A stretch of DNA of 64,000 bases from Candidatus Bathyarchaeota archaeon (GTDB lineage: Archaea; Thermoproteota; Bathyarchaeia; Bathyarchaeales; Bathyarchaeaceae): assembly GCA_030615265.1 (NCBI GenBank), contig JAUWZP010000001.1, positions 6,225 to 70,224 on the forward strand. The letters run 5' to 3'. How positions within the stretch are numbered: position 1 is the first letter of the stretch; the number at the start of each line of letters is the position of its first letter. The notes below the pieces were generated by a model. That model worked only from the letters and a program-made list of their open reading frames with translations. It did no database searches and had not been told where the DNA came from. A program made the translations under genes and the position numbers. Below are positions 5,619 to 29,091 of this stretch, piece after piece.

Positions 5619-5625
5619 ACAAAAA

Positions 5626-7147: not shown

Positions 7148-7268
7148 TGGAACAGAAATCTTAATCCACCTCAAAGGGATGCCAACTCCCTTTAACAATA
7201 AGATATTTTCTTGGTCACATTTTTGGAAAGAAGCTAAGGAGGAGAGAACTTAATTGAATTGGAAAGGC

Positions 7269-8228: not shown

Positions 8229-8384
8229 TGCGCCCAATATGGGACTGTTCAACATCGAAGTATAAGTCTAGTAGCTATGCGAAGGGATCTCACGGTTTTA
8301 ATGGACATTGGTGGAGACTTGCATTATGCATGCATATAATCCAGAATCTGAATTCGAGATTCATAAAGTTTAAGCCGTGAAAAT

Positions 8385-9284
8385 ATGAAGCAAAGATATG
8401 TATGTAGAATAAGTGGAGAAAAACTAACTTTGTCGCTATATTCCCTCCGTAGGGCAATGCGAGATAAATTATTGCTCAAGCTTGGGTTTCAATCGCTGTT
8501 TAGGGATAATGTCAGTTCATTCTATTTTCATGCTTTGAATCGCCAAACGAATCTAGCAGAGAGGAGATGTGGACCTCCATCTGTTAACTATTACGAATTT
8601 GGTGTTGGTTTGGGAGGCACTCTCATTAATTACATCAAAGCTTTAAGAAAGTTCTGCAAACGTTCAAAAAAGGAGCTTTATTCATACCATATATTCGCAT
8701 TTGATAGCTTTAATGGGTTACCGAAGAAGAAAAGTCCAAAAGATGACTATAAAGAGTGGTATGAAGGATGTTATTCACATAGTCTTTCTGAGATAAAGCA
8801 AAGGGTAATCAAACAAGGTATAGATTTAAGACAAGGAACTGTTCATCTCATCAAAGGTTTCTACGAGAAAACGTTAACGCCTGAACTTAGAAATGAACTA
8901 AAAGATTATCCACCTTCTATTGTTACCATAGATTGTGACTATTACAGTTCTACAAAGACTGTATTGGAATGGTTGAGACCGATATTGGTCAGTGGGACCC
9001 TTTTCTATTTTGATGACATCTGGAGTTTCCACGGAAATCCACACTACGGGGAATTAGCCGCAATTAATGAATTCAATAAGGCTGAAGAGGGACAATTAAC
9101 CCCAATTCCTCTTTTCGGATTGAGCAGTAAAATATTCATATATTCGAGAAGGGAATTTGAGTTCACGAGAGAGAATCAAGACGATAGAGAATTAAATGTT
9201 GAGATTGTAGACTCTAGTACTACTTCCCTTCAAAGAAAGAGCATATATGCGTCACCTTTGAATTGTCCACTTTTAAAATGTTAG
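8385..9284 (+). CDS. TylF/MycF-like (macrocin O-methyltransferase family) class I methyltransferase
   Basis: EFGVGLGGT, FAFDSFNGLP, LIKGFYEKTL and IVTIDCDYYSST resemble the TylF family (E.GV..G.s...fDsFeGlp ... G.f.dtlp ... DgDlYeST). Confidence 0.6.
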   Translation: MKQRYVCRISGEKLTLSLYSLRRAMRDKLLLKLGFQSLFRDNVSSFYFHALNRQTNLAERRCGPPSVNYYEFGVGLGGTLINYIKALRKFCKRSKKELYSYHIFAFDSFNGLPKKKSPKDDYKEWYEGCYSHSLSEIKQRVIKQGIDLRQGTVHLIKGFYEKTLTPELRNELKDYPPSIVTIDCDYYSSTKTVLEWLRPILVSGTLFYFDDIWSFHGNPHYGELAAINEFNKAEEGQLTPIPLFGLSSKIFIYSRREFEFTRENQDDRELNVEIVDSSTTSLQRKSIYASPLNCPLLKC

Positions 9285-9345
9285 GAACATGTTAGTATCA
9301 AACCTAACATTTCCCATTGTTTTATGTCTATAATCACTTCGCGGA

Positions 9346-9442
9346 CGTGTGTGAGAGAGTGAGAGTGGATATATGATGAAGGAAGAGGAAGGAGAGGGAA
9401 GTGGAGGTAGAGGGAAGTGTGTGTGTGGGTTAAATTATTAAT
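9346..9442 (+). repeat. C-free G/A/T low-complexity tract: (GT)n-flanked GA-rich polypurine block
   Basis: From about 9347 to 9442 the top strand has no C. Sequence: GTGTGTGAGAGAGTGAGAGTGG...GAAGGAAGAGGAAGGAGAGGGAAGTGGAGGTAGAGGGAAGTGTGTGTGTGGG. It lies in the 400-nt gap between the TylF-like gene and the GT4 gene. Confidence 0.85.
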
Positions 9443-9687
9443 GCAACTTGAGATGACATAATATGAAACAGCACATGAATACTTCTTGAATCTGGTGCTT
9501 AGGATGTCTCGTTGGGAAGATGTGTTATCTTTAGAAGATGAAGAATACGTTGTAGCAAGTTGGAGAGCAGTTCTTTCTAGGGACAGTGGACACATTCAGA
9601 ATAAGAGAAAGAGACACCCAAAACTTGTTTTGACTAACCGTAGGCTGGTATACCTTTGCAGAGAAAATTGTTGAAGGTAAGAGTAAA

Positions 9688-10665
9688 ATGAAATCCTTGT
9701 ATGTCATGGGGAACAGACATTTCGGTTTTGCGCATGATTTTTATAACTATGTGCTAAGGGACTTAGGGTTTGATGTATATCGTCAAAGCACGGTAAAAGG
9801 CTATTATTTTCACTTGCTTTTACACAAATATGAGCTTATCTGGGCATGTGGTAAGGCTCGTGGTTTCTCAACTGTCTCGCTCAAACGTTTCCCGCTTTTA
9901 AAAGAAAGGATGAAAAGGACTAAAGTCGTTACACGTTTCCATCGTCAATTGGATGCCTTCTTTCATGAAAGACCAGAAGTAGCTTGGATGCCATATATGT
10001 CAATAATTGGGAGTGATAAGGTAGTGTGGGTATATGATTGCTTTGATCAGCTGAAAGAATATGTTCCAAAACTCCCAAAGTCCAAGTTTCATGTTGTTCA
10101 TAACGGTGTAGATTTAAATTGCTATAAGTCAGATGAAAGGAAACGTAAAGAGAACGAGATTTTTACATTAAGCAGTTGGCATTCACCTCGGAAATGTTTG
10201 GAAGTGTTAATTGAAGCAATGAATTATCTGCCAAAATGGCGTTTAGATATAGCTGGAAGGTTCTTGCAGAGTGATTATGAAATGAGATGCAAACAATTAG
10301 CAAAACCTAACAAAGATAGGATATACTTTCATGGTTTTGTTAATGATAAGCTAGGTTGGATGCAAAAAGCAACAGTATTTGTAATGCCAAGCAGACAGGA
10401 AGCTTGGAGTACACAAGTTATGGAAGCTATGGCATGTGAATGTTCTGTTATTGCACCTGAAATTGGAGGAGAGCCACAGTATGTTCCAGAAATCGAGCTT
10501 GTTTCAATAGATATTTCTCCAGAGCAACTTGCGGAAAAAATTATCGAGGTTGCAAATGACGAAGAATTAGGCGTATTGTACCGTAATATTGTTAAAAAAT
10601 ATGATTGGGCTATTGTGAAAAAAGAGACCGAAAACGTTCTTGGGAGGTTAAGGGATAATGCATAA
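9688..10665 (+). CDS. GT-B fold glycosyltransferase, family 4
   Basis: C-terminal E-x7-E region (PSRQEAWSTQVMEAMACECSVIAPEIGG) is typical of GT4/Glycos_transf_1. Confidence 0.8.
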   Translation: MKSLYVMGNRHFGFAHDFYNYVLRDLGFDVYRQSTVKGYYFHLLLHKYELIWACGKARGFSTVSLKRFPLLKERMKRTKVVTRFHRQLDAFFHERPEVAWMPYMSIIGSDKVVWVYDCFDQLKEYVPKLPKSKFHVVHNGVDLNCYKSDERKRKENEIFTLSSWHSPRKCLEVLIEAMNYLPKWRLDIAGRFLQSDYEMRCKQLAKPNKDRIYFHGFVNDKLGWMQKATVFVMPSRQEAWSTQVMEAMACECSVIAPEIGGEPQYVPEIELVSIDISPEQLAEKIIEVANDEELGVLYRNIVKKYDWAIVKKETENVLGRLRDNA

Positions 10666-11380
10666 CCAGTTGGCTTATAAAATGAGAATTCATATTAAAG
10701 ATTGTGCTTGCATGCCGAACCCTTTATTCATCATTCTAAAGATAATTTCTGTGCTTTGTCGAAGAAATTTTGTCCCACTCACATTTAGACAAAGTATACA
10801 ACTCCTTTTGTCAAGCAAAGATGAAACACATCTTGAAAGTTTTATGGTGGCAGAAAAATCCTTTGTGGACATAGGAGCAAATGTAGGTGTACATACATTG
10901 AGCATGGCGAAAAAAGGTGTTTTTGTATATGCTTTTGAACCTAGTCCTAACGCATTAGAAACACTTTATAGACGCACTAAATTTTTCGATAACATAAAAG
11001 TTTTTCCTTACGCTTTAGGAAGCAAAGAAGGTTTAGTGAAGTTTTACTCACACGACAAATCCGAAACAGATAGCATGTTTTTCTCTACTGATTACACAAG
11101 TGTTTGCGAAGTGAAAATGAAAACATTAGATAATTTTAATTTGAAAAATATTGGAATTATAAAAATAGATACTGAGGGTTTTGAACTTCATGTGTTGAAA
11201 GGTGCAGTTAAAACACTAAAACGTGAAAAACCTAGATTAATCTTAGAAATACATAACCCACTTTTCGATAACGAAGCAAATATCAAACGTTTTCTTATGT
11301 CTTTAGGATACGAAAATTTCAGAAAAATCTGGAAATTTCCTAGATATGGACAATTTCACTTAATTGTAAATTGGAGTTGA
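10658..11380 (+). CDS. FkbM-family SAM-dependent methyltransferase (second copy)
   Basis: FVDIGANVGVHTLSMA and IGIIKIDTEGFELHVLKGA. The start overlaps the GT4 stop (ATGCATAA). Confidence 0.8.
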   Translation: MHNQLAYKMRIHIKDCACMPNPLFIILKIISVLCRRNFVPLTFRQSIQLLLSSKDETHLESFMVAEKSFVDIGANVGVHTLSMAKKGVFVYAFEPSPNALETLYRRTKFFDNIKVFPYALGSKEGLVKFYSHDKSETDSMFFSTDYTSVCEVKMKTLDNFNLKNIGIIKIDTEGFELHVLKGAVKTLKREKPRLILEIHNPLFDNEANIKRFLMSLGYENFRKIWKFPRYGQFHLIVNWS

Positions 11381-11384
11381 ACCT

Positions 11385-11723
11385 ATGATTTTGGGTGTTA
11401 TCGGATTAGGCTTCATGGGCCTAGGCTTCTCAAGAGGCGTGAACTGTTTTAAAGCAACAGCCCTTGAAAATTCAATTAAGAGCGCATACAGATTTGCCTC
11501 TCTTCTTAAAGAACTCAACGATTACATGGTTGAAAAGTATACTCCAAAAATCAAATCGTTTCGTAAAAAGAAAATCGGCATTTTAGGCATGGCATACAAG
11601 CCAAACGCCCCTTACGTTTACGAGTCCCAACCACTGAAAATAGTCCAAGAATTACTCAAAGAAGGGTATGAGATCTATATTCACGACCTGTTAGCAGAAG
11701 CGCGGTGGAAAAGAATTGAATAG
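11385..11723 (+). pseudogene. degenerate internal/C-terminal fragment of a UDP-glucose/GDP-mannose dehydrogenase paralog
   Basis: GLGFMGLGFSRGVNCF is a decayed version of the GLGFGGPCFPRD catalytic-Cys motif. KKIGILGMAYKPNAPYVYESQPLKIVQELLKEGYEIYIHD is the UDP-binding domain. The N-terminal NAD domain is missing, and the fragment ends where the intact gene starts. Confidence 0.5.
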
Positions 11724-12951
11724 AATTTCAGTGGTTGGCTTAGGAAAGTTGGGGCTTCCGTTAGCCGTTTCTTTGGCATCTAAGGGATTTCAAGTAGTCG
11801 GAGTTGACATTGACGAAAGAAAGGTTAGAGCAATAAACAACGGTATATCCCCCGTTAGTGAAACTAATCTGCACGAAACGCTTACTCGCTTTAAAGATTC
11901 AATAGTTGCTACTCTTGATTACGATTATGCTCTTAGAAATTCTGATGTTACATTCGTTTTTACAAATACACCCAGCAATCCAGACGGAAGCTATTCAACG
12001 AGACAATTAGAATCCGCATGTCGAGAGATAGGCAAAGTTTTGCGAGACAAGAATGTGTTTCATGTCGTAATCATAATGAGCACAGTCCTGCCTCTAACGT
12101 GCGAAGAAACATTAAAACCTATACTTGAAGAGCAATCAAAGAAAAAATGTGGAGTAGACTTCGGATTATGCCACACGCCAGAATTTGTCGCCTTAGGAAG
12201 CGTAATACACGACTTCTTGAATCCTGACTTCTTTTTAATAGGGGAATCTGACCCCAAGTCTGGTCGAATAGTGGAAAACATCTACAGGAAAATCTCCGAC
12301 TCAAAAATTGTTAGAACCAGCATCGTCAATGCTGAACTTGCTAAAATCGCTATAAACTGCTTTCTAACCACAAAAATAAGCTTCGCCAACACATTGGGAG
12401 AAGTATGTGAAAAATTACCAAACGCAAATGCAAACACTGTGACATCTATACTCGGTTTAGACCACCGCATTAATGCTGGCTGTCTCAATGCAGGACTGGG
12501 TTTCGGCGGTCCCTGTTTCCCTCGCGACAACAAGGCGTTCAACTTCCTCGCCAAGCAACTGAGTTGTCAATCTTGGCTGGCAGAAGCCACAGACAAAGTG
12601 AACGCCATTCAAGTTGACAAGGTAGTAGAAAAAGTGAAAAGCAGACTTAAAGGCAAAGGCACGGTCGCTGTTCTGGGGCTCTCATATAAGCCCAATACCG
12701 AAACAGTCGAAGCATCGCAATCCCTCGAAATAGCCAAGAAATTGTCTGGTTTGGGGTACAAGGTTAAAGTCTACGATCCACAAGCAATGAATGAAGCAAA
12801 ACTCATTCTTGGCGATAACGTCGTTTATTGCAATTCGTTACAACAATGTGTAGAGAACACTGGTCTTTGTATTGTTGCCACCCCTTGGAAAGAGTTTAAG
12901 CATCTTAAAGTCAGTGTTCCCGTAATCAACTGTTGGAATATAAAGAAGTGA
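11716..12951 (+). CDS. UDP-glucose 6-dehydrogenase family nucleotide-sugar dehydrogenase (intact)
   Basis: All three domains are present: VVGLGKLGLPLAVSLASKGFQVVGVDID (NAD), GLGFGGPCFPRD (catalytic Cys) and VAVLGLSYKPNTETVEASQSL (UDP-binding domain). Confidence 0.85.
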   Translation: MNRISVVGLGKLGLPLAVSLASKGFQVVGVDIDERKVRAINNGISPVSETNLHETLTRFKDSIVATLDYDYALRNSDVTFVFTNTPSNPDGSYSTRQLESACREIGKVLRDKNVFHVVIIMSTVLPLTCEETLKPILEEQSKKKCGVDFGLCHTPEFVALGSVIHDFLNPDFFLIGESDPKSGRIVENIYRKISDSKIVRTSIVNAELAKIAINCFLTTKISFANTLGEVCEKLPNANANTVTSILGLDHRINAGCLNAGLGFGGPCFPRDNKAFNFLAKQLSCQSWLAEATDKVNAIQVDKVVEKVKSRLKGKGTVAVLGLSYKPNTETVEASQSLEIAKKLSGLGYKVKVYDPQAMNEAKLILGDNVVYCNSLQQCVENTGLCIVATPWKEFKHLKVSVPVINCWNIKK

Positions 12952-12961
12952 GAAATTTAAT

Positions 12962-13462
12962 GCTGATTCAAGTAAAGTTTTAGACCTAATTTACCAAGAT
13001 AGACGAAACTACAAGGCTGGGCTTGGGTTTGCTGGTCCGTGTTTTCCACGAGATGTGAACTGCTTCAAGACCATATGCAATGAAAATGCTATCTGGAGCG
13101 GAGATAGGTTTACCAGCATGTTAAACGACCTTAACAACTATGTTGTCGACAGATACATTCAGAAAGTCAAGTCTTCAAAGAGAAGAAAAGTTGGAATTCT
13201 TGGAGTGGCATACAAACCAAATGTTTCTTACGTGTATGAGTCACAACCATTAAAAATTGCTAAGCAACTATTGCAGGAAGGCTATGAAGTTTACATTTAT
13301 GACCCGTTAGCCGAAGGGAATGCTAAACAAGTCTTAAACAACAAAGCGCACTTCTGCTCAACCATCAAGGAATGTGTGGATGAAGTCGAAATCATTTTCA
13401 TCGGAACAGTGAATTATTCTAATGTTGAAACAGACAAGTCTACGGTGAACCCATGGAGGTAA
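12962..13462 (+). pseudogene. 3-prime fragment of a UDP-glucose dehydrogenase paralog (no NAD domain, no start for the conserved part)
   Basis: The frame is open from 12944. It encodes ...YKAGLGFAGPCFPRDVNCF...RKVGILGVAYKPNVSYVYESQPLKIAKQLLQEGYEVYIYDPLAEG. This is about 70 percent DNA-similar (by eye) to fragment 11385..11723. The ORF track lists only the part after an internal Met (13055). Confidence 0.55.
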
Positions 13463-13558
13463 TCATTGGTCTATAAATCCAACTCTTCAAACAAAAGGAT
13501 ATTGCGTAGCACTTTTCATTCTAATGTTCTACGAAGCGTTGGTCCGCGCGCTTGTTGT

Positions 13559-14116
13559 TTACGCTTTAAACCATTTGAAGATGAGGTACTGCATCTTCTT
13601 GTTTTCCTGGTTTGGCACAGCTAGGATGAACCTTTTTCTCACAGTTGTGGCGAGTCTTCCCGCCTTCACGATCTCTGTGGCTGTAACTTCATCTGTTGGC
13701 TTCTTAACTGACACCATATATGGAGCATGGTCGATGCCTGGTCCATCCTTATACACGGCGAAGTCGCAGCCGTATTTGATGCCAGGGGTCACTATCAACC
13801 CTGTGTCTCGGAGGTCTTTGTAAACCCTATATTTCAAGTCAAACTCATTGTAGAGTCTGCGAGCTCTCTGCCTAAGCTTTTTAAGGCTAACCTCCGTTTT
13901 TCTCGAACCCTCAAAAACCCCAATGACTTCTTTTTCCGCTAGGTACAAGCCTTCCATAAGGCCGATGATAAGTGGCACGTTGAATTCGGCTACTTTAGGT
14001 TTAGGGATGCCTATTGGCTTCCCGTAGTAGCCTATCTTGTAGAGTTCGGAGCCGTCCTTTGGGTTCCAAACAACCAAAAAGTTTTCAATAAATTCGGTTT
14101 CGATTTTTCGAGGCAT
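13559..14116 (-). CDS. endA: tRNA-splicing endonuclease
   Basis: The C-terminal catalytic domain GIKYGCDFAVYKDGPGIDHAPYMVSV...RLATTVRKRFILAV matches the archaeal EndA pattern (G.kfG.Df.vY......H..y.v.v ... vak.v.K). Confidence 0.85.
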   Translation of the reverse strand: MPRKIETEFIENFLVVWNPKDGSELYKIGYYGKPIGIPKPKVAEFNVPLIIGLMEGLYLAEKEVIGVFEGSRKTEVSLKKLRQRARRLYNEFDLKYRVYKDLRDTGLIVTPGIKYGCDFAVYKDGPGIDHAPYMVSVKKPTDEVTATEIVKAGRLATTVRKRFILAVPNQENKKMQYLIFKWFKA

Positions 14117-14133
14117 ATCTTACAGCCCGCTGG

Positions 14134-14793
14134 TTACATGGCGAAAGCCAAGATGCGCGCTGCGTCTGAGGCATCTTCAGCTTTGTCAGCTGCGTCTTCC
14201 ATGAGTTGAAGCACGTCTCTTAGGAGCAGCAAAACTGGAATTTCAAGGTGACTGTTAAGAATTTTAACTTCAAGCTCGCGGTACAGGTCGTCAACCACTC
14301 GTTCGGCAACTTCAACTTCTCTTGCCTTTTCTGATGTCTTGCTCGCGCCATAACTCAGAGTCATGACGGTTTCCCGGAGTTTATGGATGGTCTCAAACAT
14401 TCCCTCTGAAAGTTCCAGCAAGCTTTTTTTGATGTCCGAGGGCACCTTCCAACCTCGTTCTGTAAGTTCAAGCAAGCGGAAGGCTATTCCTTCGCAGAAA
14501 TCGGCGATTTCGTTGGTGAGACTAGTGAATCGGAGGAAGTCTTCTCTGCTTATCAATATTGCTCCTATTTCAGCCAGTTCTTTTGCCACTGTGCGTCTGG
14601 CTATGTCCACTTCCTCCTCAGACTTTCTGATTTCGGCATGTAGTTGTCTAACTATTTTTTTTTCTCCGTTCACAAAACTGTCGATTAACTGATGGGTTTT
14701 GCGAGTGACCTCCACGACCTTGCGTAGATGCTCCTGACAAATGTTCAGCGCTCTCCGTTTCACTCGTTCCTCGGTCTCCACTGGAAAAACCAT
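14134..14793 (-). CDS. DUF47/PhoU-like (TIGR00153) phosphate-transport-regulator-related protein
   Basis: All-helical 219 aa protein with the characteristic C-terminal LLLLRDVLQLMEDAADKAEDASDAARILA motif. Confidence 0.7.
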   Translation of the reverse strand: MVFPVETEERVKRRALNICQEHLRKVVEVTRKTHQLIDSFVNGEKKIVRQLHAEIRKSEEEVDIARRTVAKELAEIGAILISREDFLRFTSLTNEIADFCEGIAFRLLELTERGWKVPSDIKKSLLELSEGMFETIHKLRETVMTLSYGASKTSEKAREVEVAERVVDDLYRELEVKILNSHLEIPVLLLLRDVLQLMEDAADKAEDASDAARILAFAM

Positions 14794-14906
14794 GAGTCTC
14801 CGCCCTCAAGATTACCGTTTTAGTCTTCAAAATAAGATAGAGTGAATCCTTATTAACCTTTAAGGAAGTTTTTGACTAGCCCGAAACACTAGGCGAGGCT
14901 TACAGA

Positions 14907-15616
14907 TTGACCATTAAAGCTGTGCTGTTTGACCTTGGAAACACACTTGTTTATCAGAATCCCTATAAAACCTTCCAAAAGATACTGGGAACCCACGGCA
15001 TAGCTAAAACAACCAAGGAAATAGAAGAAGCCTTCGCGAAGACTGAAAGAGAATTTGACATTAAAAGGCATAGTAGGCTTTCTGCACACGAATTTTACAT
15101 GCAACTAAACATACACATTTTGAAACATTTAGGAATCACAAATTCCAATGCGCTGCAAGCGTTGGCAGAGAACATCAACATCCAATGGTTTAAAGCATCT
15201 AAAGTCCACCTCTACCGCGATGATAAACCTACATTGGCTAAACTGAAAAAGATGGGACTCAAACTTGGACTAATAACCGACGATTACAAAATCGATTTAG
15301 AGAAGATAATGCCTCAAGTTGGCCTCCAAAATTTTTTCGCCATCTGCGTTTGTGGTGACACTGTTGGAAAAAGAAAGCCAAACCCACAAGTTTCGAGCAT
15401 GCGTTAAACCAGTTCAACATTCGATCATCAGAAGCCATTTTTGTTGGAGACCGCATAGACACAGATTACATTGGAGCAAAAGAAGCTGGAATGACACCCA
15501 TCTTAATTCGAAGAGAAAGCAGCAAGCAAGAAGTCGCTGGTGTTAGGTCTATAACCAGTCTTAAAGAAGTTTTTAAAGTATTAGAGATAATGGAAGGCGA
15601 AGGCTCTAACCCTTAA
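14907..15616 (+). pseudogene. HAD-superfamily hydrolase (phosphatase-like) carrying a -1 frameshift
   Basis: Motif I is AVLFDLGNTLV and motif III is GKRKPNPQV. The frame then hits a stop at 15405-15407, while the frame shifted by one nt continues FEHALNQFNIRSSEAIFVGDRIDTDYIGAKEAGM (motif IV) up to the TAA at 15614-15616. The break maps to the TTT run at 15391-15393. Confidence 0.7.
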
Positions 15617-17168
15617 CTAGTTCTCCTAAATCTTCAAAGTTTAGTTTGTAACGGAAATATGCATGTAGCAGTTCGGGCAACCGCTCAACTTTGTTTCTAA
15701 CCTGCTTCCAAGTGTCACGGTCTCGCATGGTTACAGTGTCATCCTCTAATGTTTGGTAGTCAATGGTTACTCCAAGCGGTGTGCCAGCTTCATCTGCCCG
15801 TGCGTACCGCCTGCCGATAGAACCAGATTCGTCGTATTCAGCCAGAAAGCCTTCTTTAACTAAGAACTGATGCACCCGTTTGGCTTTTTCGGGTAAGCCG
15901 TTTTTGCCGACTAATGGGTAAACGCCTACCTGAACGGGCGCTATGTCTCTTGGGAAACTTAGAACCTTACGTTTCTTAATTGTTTTCAGAGCGTACTCCA
16001 CGGCGACGTATACAAGTCGGTCTAAACCAAAACTGGGTTCAACCACATGGGGAATGAAACGTCTGCCTTCCTTGAAAACGCGCATGTCAACGCCGCTGAA
16101 TTTCATATGCTGGTTCAGGTCATAATCCGTACGATAATTGTGCCCTGAAACTTCCACCCAGCCCCAGCGTTCAATGTAGATCTCTTGGTCAAAACCCTGC
16201 TTAGAATAGTGAGCTCTTTCCCAATCTAGTTTTTCAATGAACCGTTGTTTGTCTTCAGGTACTCCAAGTTCCATTAGGAAGCGTTTAGCTTGAGCCATGA
16301 AGAAGCCCTGCCACTCTGTCTTTATGAAGCCTTTACCTAAGGCTTGTTTTACAGTTATCTCAACAGGTTCTTTCTTGCCTTTCAGTTTGGCTTCAGTGAG
16401 TAGAAGTCTAAGCTTTTCGTTTTCAACATTTTGGAGTAGTGGGCACTGGGGTTCTTCTGGGTCGAAGAAGAATTCAATGTCCGCAATTGTGAATTCGCGT
16501 AATCGTATGACGCCTTGTCTTGGGGAGATTTCGTTTCTCAATGCATGGCCGATTTGGACAATGCCTAGGGGTAAGCGTTCTCGGGCGTTTTCGTACAGGC
16601 GTTTGAATTCTACGAAGATGCTTTGGGCGGCTTCTGGGCGGCCGTAGCCAACTGCGTCGGAGTAGGGACCAATAGTTGTGGAGAACATTGTCATGAACTG
16701 TTTGACTTCGCCGAATTCGCCACCGCATTCGAGACATTTAATCTCATGTTTTCTGATTTGGTCTATGAGTTGTTGGGGGCTGAGCTTCTCTGTTTTCGTG
16801 TCGCTCATTCCAGCGAACTCTTGTAACAAGTGGTCGGCTCGAAACTTGTGTTTGCATTTGCCGCATTCAACCATGGGTTCTTTAAAGTGCTCTACATGTC
16901 CCGAAGCCTCAAACACTTTGGCTGGCAAGATCACAGAAGACTCGATTTCCAGAATGCCAAGCGGTCGAATATAGAATTCTCGAAACTTGTCCTCTATTCT
17001 CCTTTTTAACATGGTGCCTAGAGAACCATACGTGACGAAGCCGCTTACTCCTCCGTAAATTTCGAAAGAAGGCCAGAAAAAGCCTCTGCGCTTGGCTAGT
17101 TCGTTAACAATTTTAAATTTGTCTGAGTCCTTCAAAGATCTGTTCTCCCAGATTATGCAATTTACCAA
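15606..17168 (-). CDS. glyS: glycine--tRNA ligase (archaeal/eukaryotic-type class II)
   Basis: RRGFFWPSFEIYGGVSGFVTYGSLG N-terminal signature, class II motifs (FRNEISPR-like LRNEISPRQGVIRLREF) and a C-terminal anticodon-binding domain. Confidence 0.9.
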   Translation of the reverse strand: MVNCIIWENRSLKDSDKFKIVNELAKRRGFFWPSFEIYGGVSGFVTYGSLGTMLKRRIEDKFREFYIRPLGILEIESSVILPAKVFEASGHVEHFKEPMVECGKCKHKFRADHLLQEFAGMSDTKTEKLSPQQLIDQIRKHEIKCLECGGEFGEVKQFMTMFSTTIGPYSDAVGYGRPEAAQSIFVEFKRLYENARERLPLGIVQIGHALRNEISPRQGVIRLREFTIADIEFFFDPEEPQCPLLQNVENEKLRLLLTEAKLKGKKEPVEITVKQALGKGFIKTEWQGFFMAQAKRFLMELGVPEDKQRFIEKLDWERAHYSKQGFDQEIYIERWGWVEVSGHNYRTDYDLNQHMKFSGVDMRVFKEGRRFIPHVVEPSFGLDRLVYVAVEYALKTIKKRKVLSFPRDIAPVQVGVYPLVGKNGLPEKAKRVHQFLVKEGFLAEYDESGSIGRRYARADEAGTPLGVTIDYQTLEDDTVTMRDRDTWKQVRNKVERLPELLHAYFRYKLNFEDLGELVKG

Positions 17169-23106: not shown

Positions 23107-24132
23107 CTATAGGTATTTTCTCATGTGTTCCAGCGCTGCTGAAGGGACAGGCAGGTCTTTCATTGTAACTACGCCAGGCGGAGCGTTTATCACTTTAGGA
23201 ATCGAATTTGCAATCACGGCTATTGTAGCTAGATCGCCATGTACGCAGGGGCTTATCTTCTGACGGATCGGTGGCACTCCATCGATGGTTACAGCATCGT
23301 ACTCTTCTTCCGCGCCTATATAGGCTTGAAACTCAAGTGTAATCCTCTCTTTTCCGTTGACAAAGCCGTGAGCGCTTTGCTTTAGGCCTGTGGCTTGTCC
23401 TCGCTTCACTTTGATGGCTTCGCTTGAAACATCTTTCCTAGCTATTACGGGCTCAACTGGGTCTATCTTAATCTTGTCAAGTTGCCATTTTAGGGCCCCA
23501 GCGATCATGCCTATTGACTGTTCAAGACCTACGTGGCCAGTGATGGCTTTCTCCTTCATTTTTTTCTTAAATTCTTTCACGGTGAGTCCTGCTCCTATCT
23601 TCTTTTGGAACGGAACTCTCCGTGTAGCAGCGTTCATGACTCTTTCAACTTTTATTCTGTTGACTTTTTGGCACACCGCAGTAAGCGTTATGACCAGCGT
23701 GTCCATTAGAAAACCTGGGTTTATGCCTGTTCCCAGAAAGGTTACTCCGTACTTCAGGCCTAAGGCATCTAGTTTCTTTGCAAGTTCAGGTTCTGAAACA
23801 TAGGGATAAGACAGTTCTTCGCACGTGGAAACCACGTTTACTCCATACTCAGCCAATGGAGCTATTTGAGGATAGACATCCCTAAGATAAGAGCTGGTTG
23901 CATGAACCACAACGTCTGCGCAAGCCTTGCCGAACACAGCCTTCGGGTCGTTTGAAACAACGACACCTAGCCGTTTGCCAATGCTTAAAACTTCGCCTAG
24001 GTCTTTTCCAACTTTGTCTTTGGCGATGTCTATGGCGCCTACGATTTTCACTCCTTCCTTTTCGAGGAGAAATTTAGCAATGCGGCTTCCAATGGCGCCA
24101 ACACCGTAAAGAACAACTCTTATTTTCTCCAT
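23107..24132 (-). CDS. NAD(P)-dependent DapB-like amine dehydrogenase family protein (2,4-diaminopentanoate dehydrogenase-like)
   Basis: IRVVLYGVGAIGSRIAKFLL Rossmann N-terminus, GTGINPGFLMD, and a C-terminal dimerisation domain as in the DapB/AmDH-like family. Confidence 0.6.
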   Translation of the reverse strand: MEKIRVVLYGVGAIGSRIAKFLLEKEGVKIVGAIDIAKDKVGKDLGEVLSIGKRLGVVVSNDPKAVFGKACADVVVHATSSYLRDVYPQIAPLAEYGVNVVSTCEELSYPYVSEPELAKKLDALGLKYGVTFLGTGINPGFLMDTLVITLTAVCQKVNRIKVERVMNAATRRVPFQKKIGAGLTVKEFKKKMKEKAITGHVGLEQSIGMIAGALKWQLDKIKIDPVEPVIARKDVSSEAIKVKRGQATGLKQSAHGFVNGKERITLEFQAYIGAEEEYDAVTIDGVPPIRQKISPCVHGDLATIAVIANSIPKVINAPPGVVTMKDLPVPSAALEHMRKYL

Positions 24133-24513
24133 ACAGCTTCCTCGTCGGTTAGCTATTTCTAAATTGGAATCAAAGATAAAGCCTTATTCTGCTTAAAAGC
24201 CTAATCACTAACTTTCAGCGTTTAGACACTAAATGTTTTGGGTCTTCCGAAGACCATGCGCGCGCATAGTCGATCAGTCTCCCATACGTGTTTACTGTGA
24301 CCAATGAGTTCATGTCATTGTCCAAGTCCTATAGTTGCGAATTCGAGTTTTTGGCTGAACTGTTTGGGGTTGTAGATTCTTCCATCGATTAGTAGGGGGC
24401 TTTTTCTTTTTGTTGGTTGAGTTTTTCGTTTGGTGGTGATGTCGAGCGCTAAGTTAATAAATGTGTTTCTTATTTTTATTTTTGGTTATAATTTGAATAA
24501 CTAGTGGTCGATT

Positions 24514-25407
24514 ATGTCGGGGTTGCCGTTGTGGTTCACGTTGTACTCAAAATTGGTCGAGTTCGGTCTTTATAGAGATCTTGCTTTTCGTGACGTTCAA
24601 GGGGTTTTGGGTCTGTCTACTGGCCATGTTAAACAGGTTATTCGGAAGTTGTTGGAGTTGAAGTTGATTGTGGGTCGTAGCAATCCTTTGGATAAGCGTT
24701 TTACTTTGTATAGGGTTGTTCCTTTACCTCTCTGGTCGAAGTACTGCGAGATGAAAGATGGGCTACCTGAGCAGTTAAGGGATGTTTTTCCCCTTCTTTT
24801 TTCCATTAAAGATGTCCATGCCGTTTTGCTTCTGGGCAGTTATGCCAGGAAGGATTTTGATGAGAAGAGCGATGTTGATGTACTTGTTGTCAGTGATGAT
24901 CCTGAAAGAGTGTTAGATTTGACCTATCACATTTGCTTGAATTTGCCTATCGATTTGCATTCATGTACCCCAGATGAATTTAGGAATTCGTTGTACCCGC
25001 TGATTCCGCATGTTGCGTTGTATGATGATGGTACCTGTGGGGAAGTAGACGTTTCACAAATTGAGGTCCTAAAGCTTTTACGCGATGCCATTGAGGGTGC
25101 ACAGAAAGTTTTGTATTTATATGCGAACGGGTTGGTTCGATTCCATCGTGTTTTTCCGGCCGTTTATGAATTAGTTTTCATTGACACCTTGCTTCACGGT
25201 TCAACCGAGCAACGTAAAGAAGATGTTTTAGAAAAGTTCTTTGTTGAGCACACCTCGGTCGGAAACTTGAAAAATGACTTGTTTAGGCTTTTGAGAATGT
25301 ATGAAAACTTGACGAAGGCGAGAGGTGAAGAAGTAGAACGTTTAGATCTGAAGGGGGAAGTGGAAATTTATAATAAAATCATTTCAGAGGTAAGCAAACA
25401 TGTCTGA
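24514..25407 (+). CDS. minimal nucleotidyltransferase (MNT, Pol-beta superfamily) with N-terminal winged-helix domain
   Basis: LLLGSYARKDFDEKSDVDVLVV is the GS-x9-11-DxD NTase signature. The N-terminal GLSTGHVKQVIRKLLELKLIV is HTH-like. Confidence 0.7.
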   Translation: MSGLPLWFTLYSKLVEFGLYRDLAFRDVQGVLGLSTGHVKQVIRKLLELKLIVGRSNPLDKRFTLYRVVPLPLWSKYCEMKDGLPEQLRDVFPLLFSIKDVHAVLLLGSYARKDFDEKSDVDVLVVSDDPERVLDLTYHICLNLPIDLHSCTPDEFRNSLYPLIPHVALYDDGTCGEVDVSQIEVLKLLRDAIEGAQKVLYLYANGLVRFHRVFPAVYELVFIDTLLHGSTEQRKEDVLEKFFVEHTSVGNLKNDLFRLLRMYENLTKARGEEVERLDLKGEVEIYNKIISEVSKHV

Positions 25408-25777
25408 AGAAGTTCGTGGCATAATAGATAGCGGCAACAACGCGTATGATAGGGGTGATTATACGGGGGCGGTTTTGGCGTATGATTCAGCCATTGAAGG
25501 AATGTTTAGAAGATATTTTTTCACGCGATACAATGAGACCGTTGGTTATGATTGGAGAAAGGTTGAAGAGGAATTCAAATCAAAGAACGTTAAACTTCCG
25601 CGTAAAATAAGCCGCCTTGTGTCTGAGTTTGCCCTTCTCAGATGGAAATCAAAGAGGGGCCCAAAATATCATTGGGCCAGAGCATTTGATAAAAGGGATG
25701 CTGAAAGGTACAAGGAACTAGTTAACAAGGTCTACGTAGCCACACAAAAATATCTACATAGGTTGCCACCAATTTGA
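25400..25777 (+). CDS. HEPN-domain protein, partner of the MNT
   Basis: All-helical 125 aa with an R-x4-H motif (KRGPKYH). 8-nt overlap with the upstream NTase gene, the usual MNT-HEPN operon layout. Confidence 0.5.
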   Translation: MSEEVRGIIDSGNNAYDRGDYTGAVLAYDSAIEGMFRRYFFTRYNETVGYDWRKVEEEFKSKNVKLPRKISRLVSEFALLRWKSKRGPKYHWARAFDKRDAERYKELVNKVYVATQKYLHRLPPI

Positions 25778-25874
25778 ATGTTGGTGCGACGCGCGGGTGT
25801 GAGTTGTATTATCTTTTTGTTAGTGTCTTTTTGTAGACCTTTACCTACCCCCTCTAGGTTTCCATGTATCGCGA

Positions 25875-25913
25875 ATATTTGAATCCAAATATGCAGGGTA
25901 TGGAAAAAAGGGG
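25875..25913. promoter_or_regulatory. composite module copy 1: near-palindrome ATATTTGAATCCAAATAT + 9-nt spacer + GGAAAAAAGGGG
   Basis: Read directly from the sequence. Copy 2 at 26712-26753 has identical spacing. On the minus strand the second half reads CCCCTTTTTTCC, which is oligo-T terminator-like. Confidence 0.6.
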
Positions 25914-26345
25914 TGTTTTTTCAGAACGTGTTTACTTGTCGTCGGCGCTAAGCGCCATAAGACGACGACAACTATAAAACTTCCAGACTTGCAAGGGGGC
26001 CCTACCTGAAAAGTCTACTGCAACTTGTTGTTGTGCAAAACCCACAGAAAAACACACAACAACAAGTGTGCCTCTCAGCAAGGATCTTCTAACACCTGAG
26101 CAGGCCTTGAAGATTTTAGCTGGCGCCAATCAAAAAGGCAGGTGGGAGTTGTTGTTGGTAAGCGAAAAACTAAGAAAACAACAACTGTGCCTTAGCAGGT
26201 TAGGCTTAAAAGTAGTTGTTCGCCGAAAACCTGGGAAACCGTGAACAACAACTTCTAAGCTTGTTCCCAAGGATATTTTAACACATGATAATCATCTTTT
26301 TACGTGGAATTTTTGGCATAAAAATGATACCCCCTATATTTTTCG
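25902..26345. ncRNA. candidate structured ncRNA / hairpin array (strand unresolved)
   Basis: No credible ORF. Six consecutive hairpins: 25936-25971, 25985-26016, 26023-26067, 26070-26105, 26147-26186 and 26210-26254. The ends are partly complementary (GGGGT at 25910 vs ACCCC at 26329). T-runs lie at 26338-26356 on the plus strand, and the A6 at 25904-25909 gives a minus-strand T-run. Confidence 0.35.
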
Positions 26346-26363
26346 TTATTCTTTTTGAGCTTT

Positions 26364-26411
26364 GGAAAAAAGGTCGTTTTCAACATACGTCCTTTATTAG
26401 GATCCAAATAT
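26364..26411. repeat. rearranged third copy of the module: GGAAAAAAGG + 26 nt + GGATCCAAATAT half-palindrome
   Basis: It has the same two sequence elements as 25875-25913 and 26712-26753, but in swapped order. Confidence 0.5.
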
Positions 26412-26413
26412 GC

Positions 26414-26600
26414 TCACCCTTTTGCAGTTAACAAGACGCCGACTATTGTTCCGATTAACCCGATGATTGCAGAGAAGATCTCGCTACTGAAAGAACCGAT
26501 GTACACAATGTGCACAATCTTGCTTCTACTTCGCCTGCCTTGAGAACGGTTACGCTGATTCCCCAGCCTGCTGGTATGGCCGTGTAGTCGATGTCGTAAA
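26414..26600 (-). pseudogene. relic of the C-terminal end of a membrane-anchored protein (frameshifted, no start)
   Basis: One frame gives NIYDIDYTAIPAGWGISVTVLKAGEVEAR. A neighbouring frame continues IVHIVYIGSFSSEIFSAIIGLIGTIVGVLLTAKG-stop (a TM helix). A stop lies immediately upstream. Confidence 0.3.
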
Positions 26601-26711
26601 TGTTTTAACACATGAAAAGGTTTGGAGTTCTGGTGGCGTTTCCATCAAACTTTGTGCGCAGCTTTCTAATTTTGAACGCCAAAAAAAACACGTCTTTCTC
26701 CCATAGTTTTT

Positions 26712-26753
26712 ATATTTGGATCCAAATATCTGTTCTATGGGAAAAAAGGGGGG
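26712..26753. promoter_or_regulatory. composite module copy 2: perfect 18-nt palindrome ATATTTGGATCCAAATAT + 9-nt spacer + GGGAAAAAAGGGGGG
   Basis: Read directly from the sequence. It is followed by TATCCCC, so the minus strand reads GGGGATACCCCCCTTTTTT, a hairpin plus a U-run. Confidence 0.6.
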
Positions 26754-26802
26754 TATCCCCGTTTTACGAATTAGAAAACTGCTTACGCCTCAGCAGACCT
26801 TT

Positions 26803-26859
26803 TCATGCGTTAAAACCTCGCCTGGGAACAAGCTTAGAAGTAGTAGCCTATGGCTACTA
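26803..26859 (-). repeat. inverted copy of the 26210-26288 module (hairpin + CTTCTAAGCTTGTTCCCA + TTTTAACRCATGA)
   Basis: 18-nt perfect inverted repeat, 26252-26269 vs 26823-26840. The flanking TTTTAACGCATGA (reverse complement of 26803-26815) matches TTTTAACACATGA at 26276-26288. The hairpin position is kept but its sequence differs (TAGTAGCC-TAT-GGCTACTA, 26841-26859). Confidence 0.7.
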
Positions 26860-26944
26860 ATTATCGGTTGCAGTAAAAATTTTCACGGCGGAGTACGTAT
26901 GCACGTGCACGTCGCAAAAACCGTTCAAAACAAGCTTGGAAACA

Positions 26945-26975
26945 GAAAAAAGGGGAGTTTACGGGGGACATCTCC
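26945..26975 (-). terminator. probable terminator of the rpl3-rpl4-rpl23 transcript
   Basis: The minus strand reads GGAGATGTCCCCCGTAAACTCCCCTTTTTTC, about 45-75 nt after the rpl23 stop. GGAG/CTCC can pair and are followed by a T6 run; archaeal termination typically uses oligo-T. Confidence 0.5.
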
Positions 26976-27018
26976 AGCATTAATATCTTAAAAGCCTAAT
27001 GACTTAATTCGCAGCCAA

Positions 27019-27279
27019 CTACAGAATGCCGAGTTTAATGGCGACGTCAACAGCCTTGTACTCTGGATGAAGTTTCACAAATGCCTTCTTCAAACCTTTC
27101 GGCGTAATTGCAACATTCACCTTTTCAACTCTCACTTCGTAGAGTTCTTCCACCGCTCGCCTAATGTCACCTTTGGAGGCCTTAAGGTTCACAATGAAAA
27201 CCAGCTTGTTCTCTGCCTCAAGTATGCGGCTAGCCACCTCGGTCATGAGAGGATACATTACAACGTCTTGTGGATCCAA
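27019..27279 (-). CDS. rpl23: 50S ribosomal protein L23 (uL23)
   Basis: The 86 aa sequence ...KLVFIVNLKASKGDIRRAVEELYEVRVEKVNV... has the L23 pattern. It sits directly after rpl4. Confidence 0.9.
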   Translation of the reverse strand: MDPQDVVMYPLMTEVASRILEAENKLVFIVNLKASKGDIRRAVEELYEVRVEKVNVAITPKGLKKAFVKLHPEYKAVDVAIKLGIL

Positions 27280-27284
27280 GCATT

Positions 27285-28064
27285 CTAGCCTCCGAACAAT
27301 TCTCCAAGCTTTTCAAAAGCCGACTTTGACCACATAGTGAGCCTACCAGGATGCGTTCCAGGAGCCAAAAGTTCAACGTTTAAATTGTTAACCTGGACAA
27401 CATCCATACCAAGAATATTTCTGGCTGCCTTCATTATGCCTCCGTTTTCAGCAACCACAAGTAAGGGTCCAACCGCATGCTTCCTCCTTCGCCCTCTCAT
27501 TTTGCCCTTGCCCGCCCGAATTTTCCGGCTTTCCTCAACTCGGTAAATGTCAGGCCAAACACCTAGCTTGATGAGAGTCTCTTTCACTTCGAGTGTCTTC
27601 TTCAATTTTTGAATATCATCGGCTACCACAAGGGGAAAGTCTGGAACATAGTCAGTTATGTGCCCACGGGAAGTCACAGTTTCCTTCAAGGCAGTTGCAG
27701 CTACAGCTGAACGCAGAGCTAGCTTCATCTCTTTTTTAGGAATTCTCTTCACAATCTTCTTCTCGATAACTGGAGGATAAGCCTCTCGACCGCCAACTGT
27801 GCCAACTACAAAGCCACCCTTGTGTCCCATCCCTTTAATTCTTGGAATTCGCGAAATTCCGAGGCCAGTACCCAAAAATTCAACGCTTCTTCTTTTTCCA
27901 GCCAGGGGGTTTCGTCCCTGCGGTTGAAAGCGGCGAGACTGAAGGGCAATTACAGCGCGTTTTATGACGTCACGTCTAATCGGAGTTTTGAAAACTGCGG
28001 GAAGGCTGACTTTGCCCAGTGCTTTGCCTTCTAGGTTGAAGATTTTGGCTGTTCTCTTGCCCAT
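27285..28064 (-). CDS. rpl4: 50S ribosomal protein L4 (uL4)
   Basis: The 259 aa sequence has ...RFQPQGRNPLAGKRRSVEFLGTGLGISRIPR...GGREAYPP... typical of archaeal L4. It lies between rpl3 and rpl23. Confidence 0.9.
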   Translation of the reverse strand: MGKRTAKIFNLEGKALGKVSLPAVFKTPIRRDVIKRAVIALQSRRFQPQGRNPLAGKRRSVEFLGTGLGISRIPRIKGMGHKGGFVVGTVGGREAYPPVIEKKIVKRIPKKEMKLALRSAVAATALKETVTSRGHITDYVPDFPLVVADDIQKLKKTLEVKETLIKLGVWPDIYRVEESRKIRAGKGKMRGRRRKHAVGPLLVVAENGGIMKAARNILGMDVVQVNNLNVELLAPGTHPGRLTMWSKSAFEKLGELFGG

Positions 28065-28080: not shown

Positions 28081-29091
28081 TTATCCTTGGGGTGACTCAA
28101 GCGATATGGAAACTATTTTCGGAGGTTCTTCTGGAACTCTTCTCGGAGGACGTGCAGGAGCGCGTAGCCTTATTAGGCGTTTGGTGGGGCCTGGTACGCT
28201 ACCGTCTATGAGGATATAGGCCCCGTTGATTTGGCCGTAGCGTAGAAATCCTCCTTTCGGCGTAACTTCGCTTCCGTCTGCCCCAATTTTCAGGATGCGC
28301 TTGTTATATTCAGTGCGTTGGTGGTAGCCCATTTGACCTGCTCTTGGAATGCTGTACTGGACTCTTGCGGGGTGCCAAGGTCCAAGGGTTGCAATGCCTC
28401 GTTTTGTCTTTCGAGCCTTGTGAGATAGAAGTCTAACGCCCCAACGTTTAACAGGTCCTTGAAAGCCTTTGCCTTTTGTTATGGCGATGGCGTCAACATA
28501 TTGGCCTTCTTTGAAGATGTCGGTAGCCGAAACTGTGTTTCCCAAGAGGTTCTTTGCGTATTCAAACTGCTCTTGAATTTGGGCTCCAGCTACTTTGATT
28601 TCCATCACGTCCGGCTTCTTTTTCGGGACGCTTGCAAGTCTGGGCTGAGTGGCAACCAAAAGGCGGAATTCAACAATTTTTTCGAGGTTTTCTTCCATTT
28701 TCTTGAAGGCTTGTTCTGGATTGTGGTTTTTAGGTGGCGTTAAAGCTCGGTTAAGGTCTTTTGGCGGTTTTTTCATCCAGGCTTCTGTGAAACTTTGTAA
28801 ACCATACGGGTTTTTTATGTAAGCGCGTATGGCACAAACTATGATAGGCGGAACGTCTATAACCGTAGCAGCGTGGGCTACTTCTTTGCCGAAATCTGAT
28901 GAGCCAGACTTGTCGTTAACCATGAAAACGTGGGTTAATCCAGCCTTGTAACCAGCAAACCCAAGTAGAATTGGGGTTTCAGCATCAATCTCAGGCCAAA
29001 AACGGATTCTGCCAACTGAACTTGCAGCACGTCCCTTAGGCAAAAAGGCGAGGGAACCACGTTTCGGGGCGTGCTTTTTTCTATGACCCAT
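28081..29091 (-). CDS. rpl3: 50S ribosomal protein L3 (uL3)
   Basis: MGHRKKHAPKRGSLAFLPKGRA... N-terminus and ITKGKGFQGPVKRWGV, both L3 hallmarks. Confidence 0.9.
   Translation of the reverse strand: MGHRKKHAPKRGSLAFLPKGRAASSVGRIRFWPEIDAETPILLGFAGYKAGLTHVFMVNDKSGSSDFGKEVAHAATVIDVPPIIVCAIRAYIKNPYGLQSFTEAWMKKPPKDLNRALTPPKNHNPEQAFKKMEENLEKIVEFRLLVATQPRLASVPKKKPDVMEIKVAGAQIQEQFEYAKNLLGNTVSATDIFKEGQYVDAIAITKGKGFQGPVKRWGVRLLSHKARKTKRGIATLGPWHPARVQYSIPRAGQMGYHQRTEYNKRILKIGADGSEVTPKGGFLRYGQINGAYILIDGSVPGPTKRLIRLRAPARPPRRVPEEPPKIVSISLESPQG

Follow-up and report, generated by a model that had tools for sequence, protein, structure and literature searches.

Introduction

The described systems closest to the locus reported here are the degraded remnants of prophages and integrative elements (islets), miniature inverted-repeat transposable elements (MITEs), dispersed hairpin families, virus satellites and the Rickettsia palindromic elements (RPE). 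The locus lies in a window of 64,000 nt, by which we mean the whole stretch of DNA analysed, from a Candidatus Bathyarchaeota archaeon (contig JAUWZP010000001.1, positions 6,225 to 70,224). Two short modules in opposite orientation stand there beside a ribosomal-protein operon, and a preliminary description of the window had offered two accounts of them: the terminal inverted repeats of a non-autonomous element spanning 26210-26859, or two diverging paralogous small-RNA genes with a common 5' module. We conclude, with a probability that we put at roughly 0.7, that the modules are broken, oppositely oriented copies of a hairpin from a virus gene, contained within an insertion of mobile-element debris, and are not transposon ends. 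For the locus itself, the gain is that a striking inverted repeat next to a ribosomal-protein operon is clarified as mobile-element debris. The wider point is that a gene-internal hairpin of uncultivated viruses recurs as non-coding, conserved-stem arrays at the ends of integrative elements.

Like islets, the window insertion is absent from relatives, carries an exact short direct repeat at its borders, and is made up of truncated viral genes, a toxin-antitoxin-like gene pair and regulatory scraps. Presence or absence at a conserved site and border repeats that are single in the empty site, two features by which islets are recognised, were both found; an integrase or recombinase of its own, a third such feature, was not. 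The site also differs from islets in having no tRNA and in a non-coding part that is mostly repeats of one hairpin gene segment instead of a collinear remnant. With MITEs the locus shares a short, non-coding format, inverted repeats ~570 nt apart and multi-copy components. In contrast to MITEs, the unit has no target-site duplication and is not repeated as a whole, and its apparent terminal repeats are internal pieces of larger, coding-derived units.

Repetitive extragenic palindromic (REP) sequences, bacterial interspersed mosaic elements (BIME) and pneumococcal BOX elements resemble the present units in being modular intergenic hairpins in either orientation whose stems are kept by paired changes. 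Those families are dispersed every few kb, whereas the 64 kb examined here contain a single cluster, and the clusters seen here are tied to the ends of integrated elements and built of units homologous to a viral gene. In further contrast to REP/BIME, only a few similar hairpins occur in ~500 kb of related loci, and no Y1/RAYT transposase was seen beside the clusters. The RPE are likewise palindromic repeats readable as protein; unlike them, the viral segment considered here is present in all 13 sequences, within a conserved linker, and looks native.

Among virus satellites (phage-inducible chromosomal islands (PICI), P4, pSSVx), archaeal examples in the literature accompany fuselloviruses and haloarchaeal spindle-shaped viruses, together with a putative Asgard case; a literature search returned nothing like the arrays or elements described below for Bathyarchaeia, which have no host-virus system in culture. 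Related loci are cited here by numbers with the prefix L. Elements of the L056 type resemble satellites in their integrase, divergent regulators, primase/replication module and estimated size of 9-10 kb, and in carrying sequence from a gene of a virus packaging module. They differ in that known satellites carry cos/pac sites or terS genes and not arrays of a gene-internal hairpin; moreover, what connects L056-type elements with a helper virus is the sequence shared with that gene, and the window holds debris, not an element.

Inverted modules and their resemblance to a viral gene

The 18-mers CTTCTAAGCTTGTTCCCA at 26252-26269 (+) and 26823-26840 (-) are perfect reverse complements, as the preliminary description had it, and the exact inverted match is even longer, at 19 nt (26251-26269 / 26823-26841; 22 nt at 95%). 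The 18-mer has no further site in the window, even with up to 3 mismatches. None of 100 dinucleotide shuffles gave two matches to it, none of 100 first-order Markov-simulated windows held such an 18-mer inverted pair, and the pair is the sole exact inverted match of at least 14 nt within 1 kb in the whole window. The 19-nt inverted match and the copies of TTTTAACRCATGA are far beyond chance, which upholds the earlier expectation that the pair is improbable. Copies of TTTTAACACATGA stand where they had been described, on the plus strand at 26276-26288 and 26603-26615, with the variant inverted counterpart TTTTAACGCATGA, its minus-strand version, at 26803-26815; a degenerate fourth copy, TTCTAACACCTGA, lies at 26087-26099.

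The two modules share 19 exact nt and then 12 of 13, and their inverted similarity runs outward into hairpins H3 and H4 as part of larger units. Hairpin H3 is real, with a span widened to 26203-26263, and the 18-mer contributes its initial 10 nt as the 3' half of that stem. In the inverted copy, TAGTAGCC-TAT-GGCTACTA at 26838-26862 is a real short hairpin as well. Similarity between loci does not stop at the 18-mer but extends to as much as 196 nt at 91%. A palindrome copy between the arms, ATATTTGGATCCAAATAT, was present at 26394 as reported, but the count of this palindrome had to be corrected to three (25875, 26394 and 26712).

Both modules correspond approximately to codons 45-80 of a helix-turn-helix (HTH)/coiled-coil protein of 141-163 aa, encoded directly upstream of the large terminase (TerL) gene in tailed viruses of Bathyarchaeia. 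In the tailed-virus block of L071 the order is an 82-aa gene, a 148-aa HTH gene that overlaps the TerL start, and TerL (Terminase_6N/6C, phrog_2). The 148-aa protein consists of a Myb/GcrA-like HTH (below threshold), then '...KRMGLRVVVVTKGYTTTTSLKLPKELPSVEEALKILAGA...', then a coiled coil. The same protein is found in 12 IMG/VR contigs, every one with the VV..TT segment, which encodes ...RLGL(K/E)VVV, 4-8 basic residues and TTTS-L.LPKELPSVEE.... With tblastn, residues 59-82 of the L071 protein align to 26056-26127 and residues 36-66 to 25908-25985; a profile of 13 viral proteins matches 26044-26136 (independent E-value 1.8e-5), and also units in L064 and L049. E-values of the tblastn and profile matches to window 25908-26136 range from 2e-4 to 2e-5. 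At the DNA level, array units and viral genes are 75% (L056-L074) and 80% (L064-L080) identical, and one DNA alignment (A3) covers both modules together with four viral genes.

The hairpin region of the window reads in one frame '...HTTTSVPLSKDLLTPEQALKILAGANQKGRW...QQLCLSRLGLKVVVRRKPGKP', stop, 'TTTSKLVPKDILTHD', and the left module reads 'GLKVVVRRKPGKP', stop, 'TTTSKLVPKDILTHD'. The 18-mer comprises the 3' base of the stem (the end of the Thr run) and the codons for SKLVP, '(T)SKLVP(K)', and TTTTAACACATGA reads 'ILTHD', corresponding to viral 'TSLKLPKELPSVEE' (viral 'LPSVE'). Since the modules are homologous to viral coding sequence, the sequence that they share is not a promoter module. An RPE-like in-frame insertion into the viral gene was considered and rejected, because all 13 viral protein sequences have the segment within a conserved linker; the hairpin segment looks native to the gene, not inserted.

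Between the modules, 26414-26600 (-) had been taken for one frameshifted membrane-protein gene. Instead, two fused fragments of neighbouring virus genes occupy this interval. The first (26521-26417, -) shows 91% aa identity to L071 7001-7249 (E 7e-16) and 83% DNA identity over 107 nt, and belongs to a family (P0101-P0123) of ~82-aa proteins with two transmembrane (TM) segments. The second (26601-26562, -) is 82.5% identical over 40 nt to L080 5286-5325, inside an L080 open reading frame (ORF; 5007-5465) that contains 'GIYDIDYTAIPTGWAVTV'. The supposed relic is thus two collapsed fragments that are collinear with the virus.

An insertion beside the ribosomal-protein genes

The window genome belongs to Bathyarchaeia, and its L4 protein is 81-84% identical to those of Bathyarchaeia metagenome-assembled genomes. 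L002, L003 and L005 are the closest three genomes to have kept the gene downstream of rpl23; in them the orthologue of the dehydrogenase gene follows rpl23 after ~70-90 nt, with no insertion, as judged by tblastx, ORFs and sequences. Given this short spacer, the window carries ~2.8 kb of extra DNA. The 14-bp repeat CTTAAAAGCCTAAT has two exact copies in the window and a single one in L002 and L003 (at most 1 mismatch); the L005 version is more diverged. Empty sites thus exist, as the preliminary description had envisaged, but the segment missing from them is 24206-26986, far larger than 26210-26859 and with different ends: relative to the ends first reported, the true borders are shifted ~2 kb leftward and 130 bp rightward.

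The metagenome contig L049 matches the window at 98% identity and carries the same insertion, which contains a nucleotidyltransferase/HEPN-like gene pair and 1.2 kb without credible genes. At its right end, 27002-26910 (-), which includes the repeat, can be aligned with a complete hairpin unit (a score matched by 1 of 500 shuffles), and the crossover may therefore have used the 5' flank of a hairpin unit, TTAGGCTTNNAAG, although this is suggestive only. Coordinates of these and other features are summarized in Table 1.

Table 1. Features of the insertion and its surroundings, in window coordinates
Feature	Position	Strand	Remarks
DapB/DAP-dehydrogenase-like gene (DapB_N/DAP_DH_C)	23107-24132		orthologues of 341-348 aa in L002, L003, L005
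14-bp direct repeat CTTAAAAGCCTAAT, left copy	24192-24205	+	overlaps TATA-like box of dehydrogenase gene promoter
Insertion, 2,781 bp	24206-26986		between rpl23 and dehydrogenase gene; missing from closest relatives
297-aa protein gene	24514-25407	+	winged-helix N-terminus and Pol-beta/MNT-type nucleotidyltransferase domain (PF01909, PF18765)
125-aa partner gene	25400-25777	+	R-x4-H motif (RGPKYH) in translation; 8-nt overlap with upstream gene
Palindrome copy 1, ATATTTGAATCCAAATAT	25875-25892 (unit 25846-25921)		flanking inverted G-boxes CCCCCTCTAGGTTTCCAT ... TATGGAAAAAAGGGG; T-run
Hairpin array	25908-26290	+	four hairpin units and linkers; non-coding, frame-broken tandem fragments of viral HTH/coiled-coil gene; viral segment 'FQKCKRLGLKVVV-loop-TTTSLKLPKELPSVEEALKILAGA'
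Hairpin H0	25933-25974	+	
Hairpin H1	26023-26067	+	
Hairpin H2	26147-26186	+	
Hairpin H3	26203-26263	+	RNA fold -23.8 kcal/mol, z -4.1
Left module	26203-26288	+	extended H3; 18-mer CTTCTAAGCTTGTTCCCA at 26252-26269; TTTTAACACATGA at 26276-26288
Palindrome copy 2, TTATTAGGATCCAAATAT	26394-26411		left variant flank ATGTTGAAAAC...CTTTTTTCC
3' fragment of 82-aa two-TM viral membrane protein gene	26417-26521	-	last 35 codons and stop
Fragment 'IYDIDYTAIPAGW' of viral 152-aa gene	26562-26601	-	gene directly upstream of membrane-protein gene in viruses
Middle unit	26603-26729	-	minus strand, 5' to 3': palindrome 3, G-box, TTCAAAATTAGAAAGCTGC, third TTTTAACACATGA copy (reads as TTTTAACACATGA on plus strand)
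Right unit	26712-26862	+	holds right module; in order: palindrome 3 (26712-26729), G-box CTATGGGAAAAAAGGGGGGTATCCCC, TCATGCGTTAAAA (26803-26815), 18-mer (-, 26823-26840), truncated hairpin H4 (26838-26862)
Third, degenerate copy of 18-mer region, TTCCAAGCTTGTTTTGAACGG	26916-26941	-	
14-bp direct repeat CTTAAAAGCCTAAT, right copy	26987-27000	+	18 nt from rpl23 stop codon
rpl23	27019-27279	-	
rpl4	27285-28064	-	
rpl3	28081-29091	-	

Several candidate features of the insertion were rejected. The small ORF at 26612-26860 and a 7-codon ORF after TTTTAACRCATG are not genes, their frame not being conserved between copies; nor are the 58-aa ORF at 26068-26244 and 'ORF-B' of L056, which are not conserved in L066. 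The 'TGGCGCCA' at 26121-26128, considered as a relic of a tRNA end (att), is actually the codons for 'LAGA' of the viral protein. ARAGORN found no tRNA in the window or the loci. Promoter and terminator scans used bacterial-type models only.

Mosaic relatives and integrative elements

A metagenome scan with the 18-mer gave 19 loci, mostly chance single matches; four (L049, L056, L059 and L064) are related. The module is thus multi-copy, being found in at least three public-metagenome loci in addition to L049. L049, L059 and L064 share one source metagenome; L056 is from another. These four loci share parts of 25850-26850 at 79-96% identity, in varying order and orientation, and the recurring parts are ~45-nt hairpins, the linker TGTGCCTYAGCAGGTTAGGCTTRAAAG, the 18-mer, a TTTTAAC motif and the 18-bp palindrome with its G-boxes. 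The left-module block occurs in L056, L059 and L064 (84-96% identity), the middle unit in L064 at 616-705 and L059 at 6162-6232 (88-92%); the right unit is collinear with L059 6162-6293 (79-89%) and aligns to the viral gene segment. Only the window and L049 have the two modules paired around this interior; elsewhere modules are single, in either orientation and in other combinations. Scans of IMG/VR with the 18-mer and with the palindrome gave no matches.

In L056 and L066-L070 the same parts belong to integrative elements. Their gene order is a divergent winged-helix regulator, a ribbon-helix-helix protein, small ORFs, a 613-aa P-loop protein, a PriS-like primase (PF01896), a 70-aa ORF, a Cdc6-like AAA+ protein, a tyrosine integrase (PF00589) and a tRNA-like sequence (in L070 a sub-threshold Rfam tRNA match beside the integrase, 26.3 bits, E 0.003). 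The palindrome and G-box, which match the variant of window palindrome copy 2 and were not found in the viruses, lie 79-96 nt upstream of the Cdc6-like gene, and hairpin arrays of 3-8 units in both orientations stand at the opposite end of the elements, abutting tRNA 3'-end fragments. L056 had been considered as a chromosomal primase/cdc6 region; this was ruled out by the end-located integrase and tRNA-like sequence and by the differing chromosomal neighbours (BREX (PglZ, BrxL) in L066, AFOR genes in L070). As in virus satellites, an integrase and replication module, small size and no virion genes in the parts seen were found. The elements were traced in L056 1-8012, L066 5316-11852 and L067-L070, and their size of 9-10 kb is estimated from overlapping partial contigs. 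No window sequence matched their integrase, primase, Cdc6-like or 613-aa proteins.

The hairpin unit

The hairpin is built into the code of the viral segment: Val codons (GTN)n are complementary to Thr codons (ACN)n, and the third codon positions pair mutually, giving a 10-14-bp hairpin. In 24 sequences (21 distinct units) the cores GT.GT.G / C.AC.AC are invariant and the stems measure 10-17 bp. The variable stem position is a T/A, C/G or A/T pair, and the GTT/AAC, GTC/GAC and GTA/TAC flavours all keep pairing across the 21 units. MAFFT/RNAalifold on the 24 units recovered a 6-bp core only, owing to register shifts in stems with a 3-nt period. The hairpin is single and gene-internal in 10 of 12 distinct viruses; in some viruses amino acids on the two arms change together (L080 VVKK/FSTT, L083 VVEQ/RSTT, L079 RVVV/TTRE). 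The Val/Thr codon pairing was noted at L071 7401-7437 and in the same gene of L072-L083, and the joint changes look as if a nucleic-acid hairpin had constrained the protein.

In the non-coding arrays reading frames are broken and the stems persist: the orthologous arrays of L056 and L066 are 92% identical in stems, 39% in loops and 64% in linkers. Conservation of the stems in arrays that do not encode protein makes it probable that the hairpin unit acts, or once acted, in cis as a nucleic-acid site. The modules in the window most likely have no function of their own at this locus.

Taken together, these findings favour the view that the modules are broken copies of a viral hairpin within mobile-element debris. 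The insertion would be decayed, recombined debris of integrative elements or proviruses, perhaps held in place by the nucleotidyltransferase/HEPN-like pair as a candidate addiction module. The inverted arrangement probably came about when hairpin and palindrome units recombined or were duplicated in inverse orientation, and not because a discrete element transposed.

Several points weigh against this view. Integrase, primase and structural genes are all missing from the window, and no tRNA marks the insertion site; the 14-bp repeat could stem from duplication of a target, from an att-like crossover or from microhomology. The placement of L059 and L064 in the population of the window depends solely on the metagenome that they have in common with L049. 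The hairpin of the viral gene does not surpass that of synonymously recoded sequences in stability (z -0.1 to -1.7), and in viruses it may be a by-product of Val/Thr runs. Formal covariation was indistinguishable from shuffles in the only three orthologous arrays, and the high stem identity could reflect gene conversion within palindromes. That the modules are without function here is itself something that we infer; compared with L049, the non-coding patch diverges no more than the neighbouring genes (~1.5% vs 2%), a distance at which the comparison carries little information.

Alternative explanations

The conservation of the stems could instead reflect a packaging (pac)-like site, in which the hairpin serves as a cis site for the viral HTH/coiled-coil protein, a candidate small terminase, and lies inside that protein's own gene. 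The arrays of the elements would secure packaging by the virus or interfere with it, and the copies in the window would be remnants or active decoys. We regard this as unlikely. In its favour, the pac sites of P22 and SPP1 lie in or beside the small-terminase gene; the viral protein combines an N-terminal HTH (GcrA/Myb-like, below threshold) with a coiled coil and its gene overlaps the TerL start; and the paired changes on the two arms in L080, L083 and L079 preserve pairing. Arrays of 3-8 units sit in elements that have integrase and replication genes and, in the parts seen, no structural genes, and non-coding arrays keep their stems while loops and linkers drift. Virus and element also co-occur in metagenome 3300037598. 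However, the label of small terminase derives from position and architecture only, and the nearest PHROGs family is a transcription regulator. The recoding comparison gave no sign of nucleotide-level selection in the viral gene, no relatives of the elements' 613-aa protein or primase turned up among IMG/VR viral contigs, and a mixed orientation of units is unexpected for a directional pac site.

Mimicry of a site, whereby the elements copied a viral packaging-recognition (or other cis) hairpin into arrays in order to be packaged or to sabotage viruses, is doubtful on our estimate. If the arrays do act in cis, through packaging mimicry or as decoys, they would form a concrete link between Bathyarchaeia viruses and candidate satellites and would serve as a sequence tag for locating such elements in metagenomes. 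If true, site mimicry would give the first satellite-helper system for Bathyarchaeia, and the modules of the window would be its fossils.

The palindromes suggest another account, namely that the patch is, or includes, the origin of replication (or a control region) of a plasmid-like element that has integrated, with palindromes and G-boxes as sites for a Cdc6-like initiator, perhaps comparable to origin recognition boxes (ORB), flanking an AT-rich unwinding stretch at 26285-26360. In archaeal ORB elements a short dyad is accompanied by a G-string. In the window three 18-bp palindromes each centre a ~70-nt dyad with 'TATGGRAAAARGGGG' boxes, and in five element copies a palindrome precedes the Cdc6-like gene at the distance given above. 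We nevertheless hold the account to be quite improbable. The Cdc6-like protein (298-304 aa; Pfam AAA and lid domains only) is without the C-terminal winged helix that reads ORB. An ordinary promoter or operator would explain a location upstream of a gene just as well, the window lacks an initiator gene, and the account concerns the palindromes, not the two inverted modules.

Two diverging, paralogous small-RNA genes with a common 5' module, the second interpretation of the preliminary description, are very improbable. A TTAAAA box 24-26 nt upstream of each hairpin would act as a TATA box, driving H3-H0 leftward and H4 rightward, for example. In its favour, both modules and L059 have TTAAAA(T/C) ~25 nt away from the base of the hairpin, the folds of H1-H3 exceed those of shuffled sequences in stability (z -2.7 to -4.6), and TTTT follows a hairpin at 26779-26796. 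However, the common sequence is coding-derived, and L056 and L064 have other sequence in place of the TTAAAA box yet retain the 18-mer and hairpin. The right module as a whole folds no better than shuffles (z -1.2 / -1.4), and both orientations of the unit occur within one array. At the gathering threshold no Rfam family matched the window, L056, L059 or L064, and at an E-value threshold the matches were at chance level only.

The reading of 26210-26859 as a non-autonomous transposable element with terminal inverted repeats is refuted on present data: although an inverted match of 19 + 13 nt ~570 nt apart, an interior without an intact ORF and multi-copy modules would suit a MITE, no direct repeat flanks 26210/26859 (the only flanking repeat being that at 24192/26987), the pair with this interior recurs only in L049 while other loci hold single modules in other contexts, the interior consists of viral gene fragments, and the polymorphic unit is 24206-26986 against other genomes or 25894-26411 against L044, never 26210-26859.

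The nucleotidyltransferase gene pair

The 297-aa protein matches PF01909 with 33 bits (cut-off 21) and the NCBIfam MntA equivalog with 24.5 bits (cut-off 60). Its 125-aa partner has no Pfam, NCBIfam or PDB match, including none to HEPN, and its designation here as HEPN-like is putative. Type VII toxin-antitoxin systems (MNT-HEPN) are similar in that a nucleotidyltransferase gene overlaps a small downstream R-x4-H gene and the two form a mobile cassette. They differ from the window pair in that its nucleotidyltransferase, at 297 aa, is extended by an N-terminal winged helix and has a helical part at the C-terminus, its score stays below family thresholds, and the partner lacks a HEPN profile match.

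In L037-L046 the nucleotidyltransferase gene is always followed by the 125-aa gene, and the pair moves as a cassette through unrelated contexts; the non-coding DNA downstream of it is conserved only in the two closest relatives. In these, L044 (95%) and L045 (91%), palindrome 1 is directly joined to the equivalent of 26412 onward. Block 25894-26411, with the left module and H0-H3, is thus an additional layer between two copies of GGATCCAAATATG. In L037, a more distantly related copy of the pair lies in a region (490-16894) dense in small toxin-antitoxin-like and transposon genes, namely ParE, PaREP1, two Y1 transposases and a TnpB/Cas12f-like gene.

Other observations

In the window genome, L002, L003 and L005, the rpl3-rpl4-rpl23 genes are not followed by rpl2. 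The DapB/DAP-dehydrogenase-like gene takes its place, and the usual archaeal order L3-L4-L23-L2 is broken in this lineage. T-runs follow C/G-rich boxes at two places inside the insertion: CCCCTTTTTTC at 26945-26955 (-), after rpl23, and GGGGTGTTTTTT at 25914-25921 (+), after the 125-aa gene. Should they function as terminators in archaea, inserted DNA would now provide the end of the rpl operon.

Two short-read contigs of SRR14872670 that are 100% identical to the window, L001 (ending at 26658) and L043 (ending at 26153), both break off within the patch of repeats, and one of the breaks falls in the H2 5' arm. Such breaks are as expected if the units are repeated or polymorphic in that sample.

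L059 has two repeat clusters, at 6125-6460 and 7905-8125, each beside a tRNA 3'-end fragment and mutually inverted. They bracket a flavin-reductase gene and a 219-aa ORF, and the C-terminal 40 residues of the flavin reductase enter a repeat cluster. More distant Bathyarchaeia have isolated hairpins in this style in the vicinity of ribosomal-protein genes (L006 10024-10067; L011 4906-4951 and 13093-13142; L036 12773-12811), with stems GTTGTGGTG..., ATGTTGTTG... and GTCGTCGGG... and loops of 15-20 nt.

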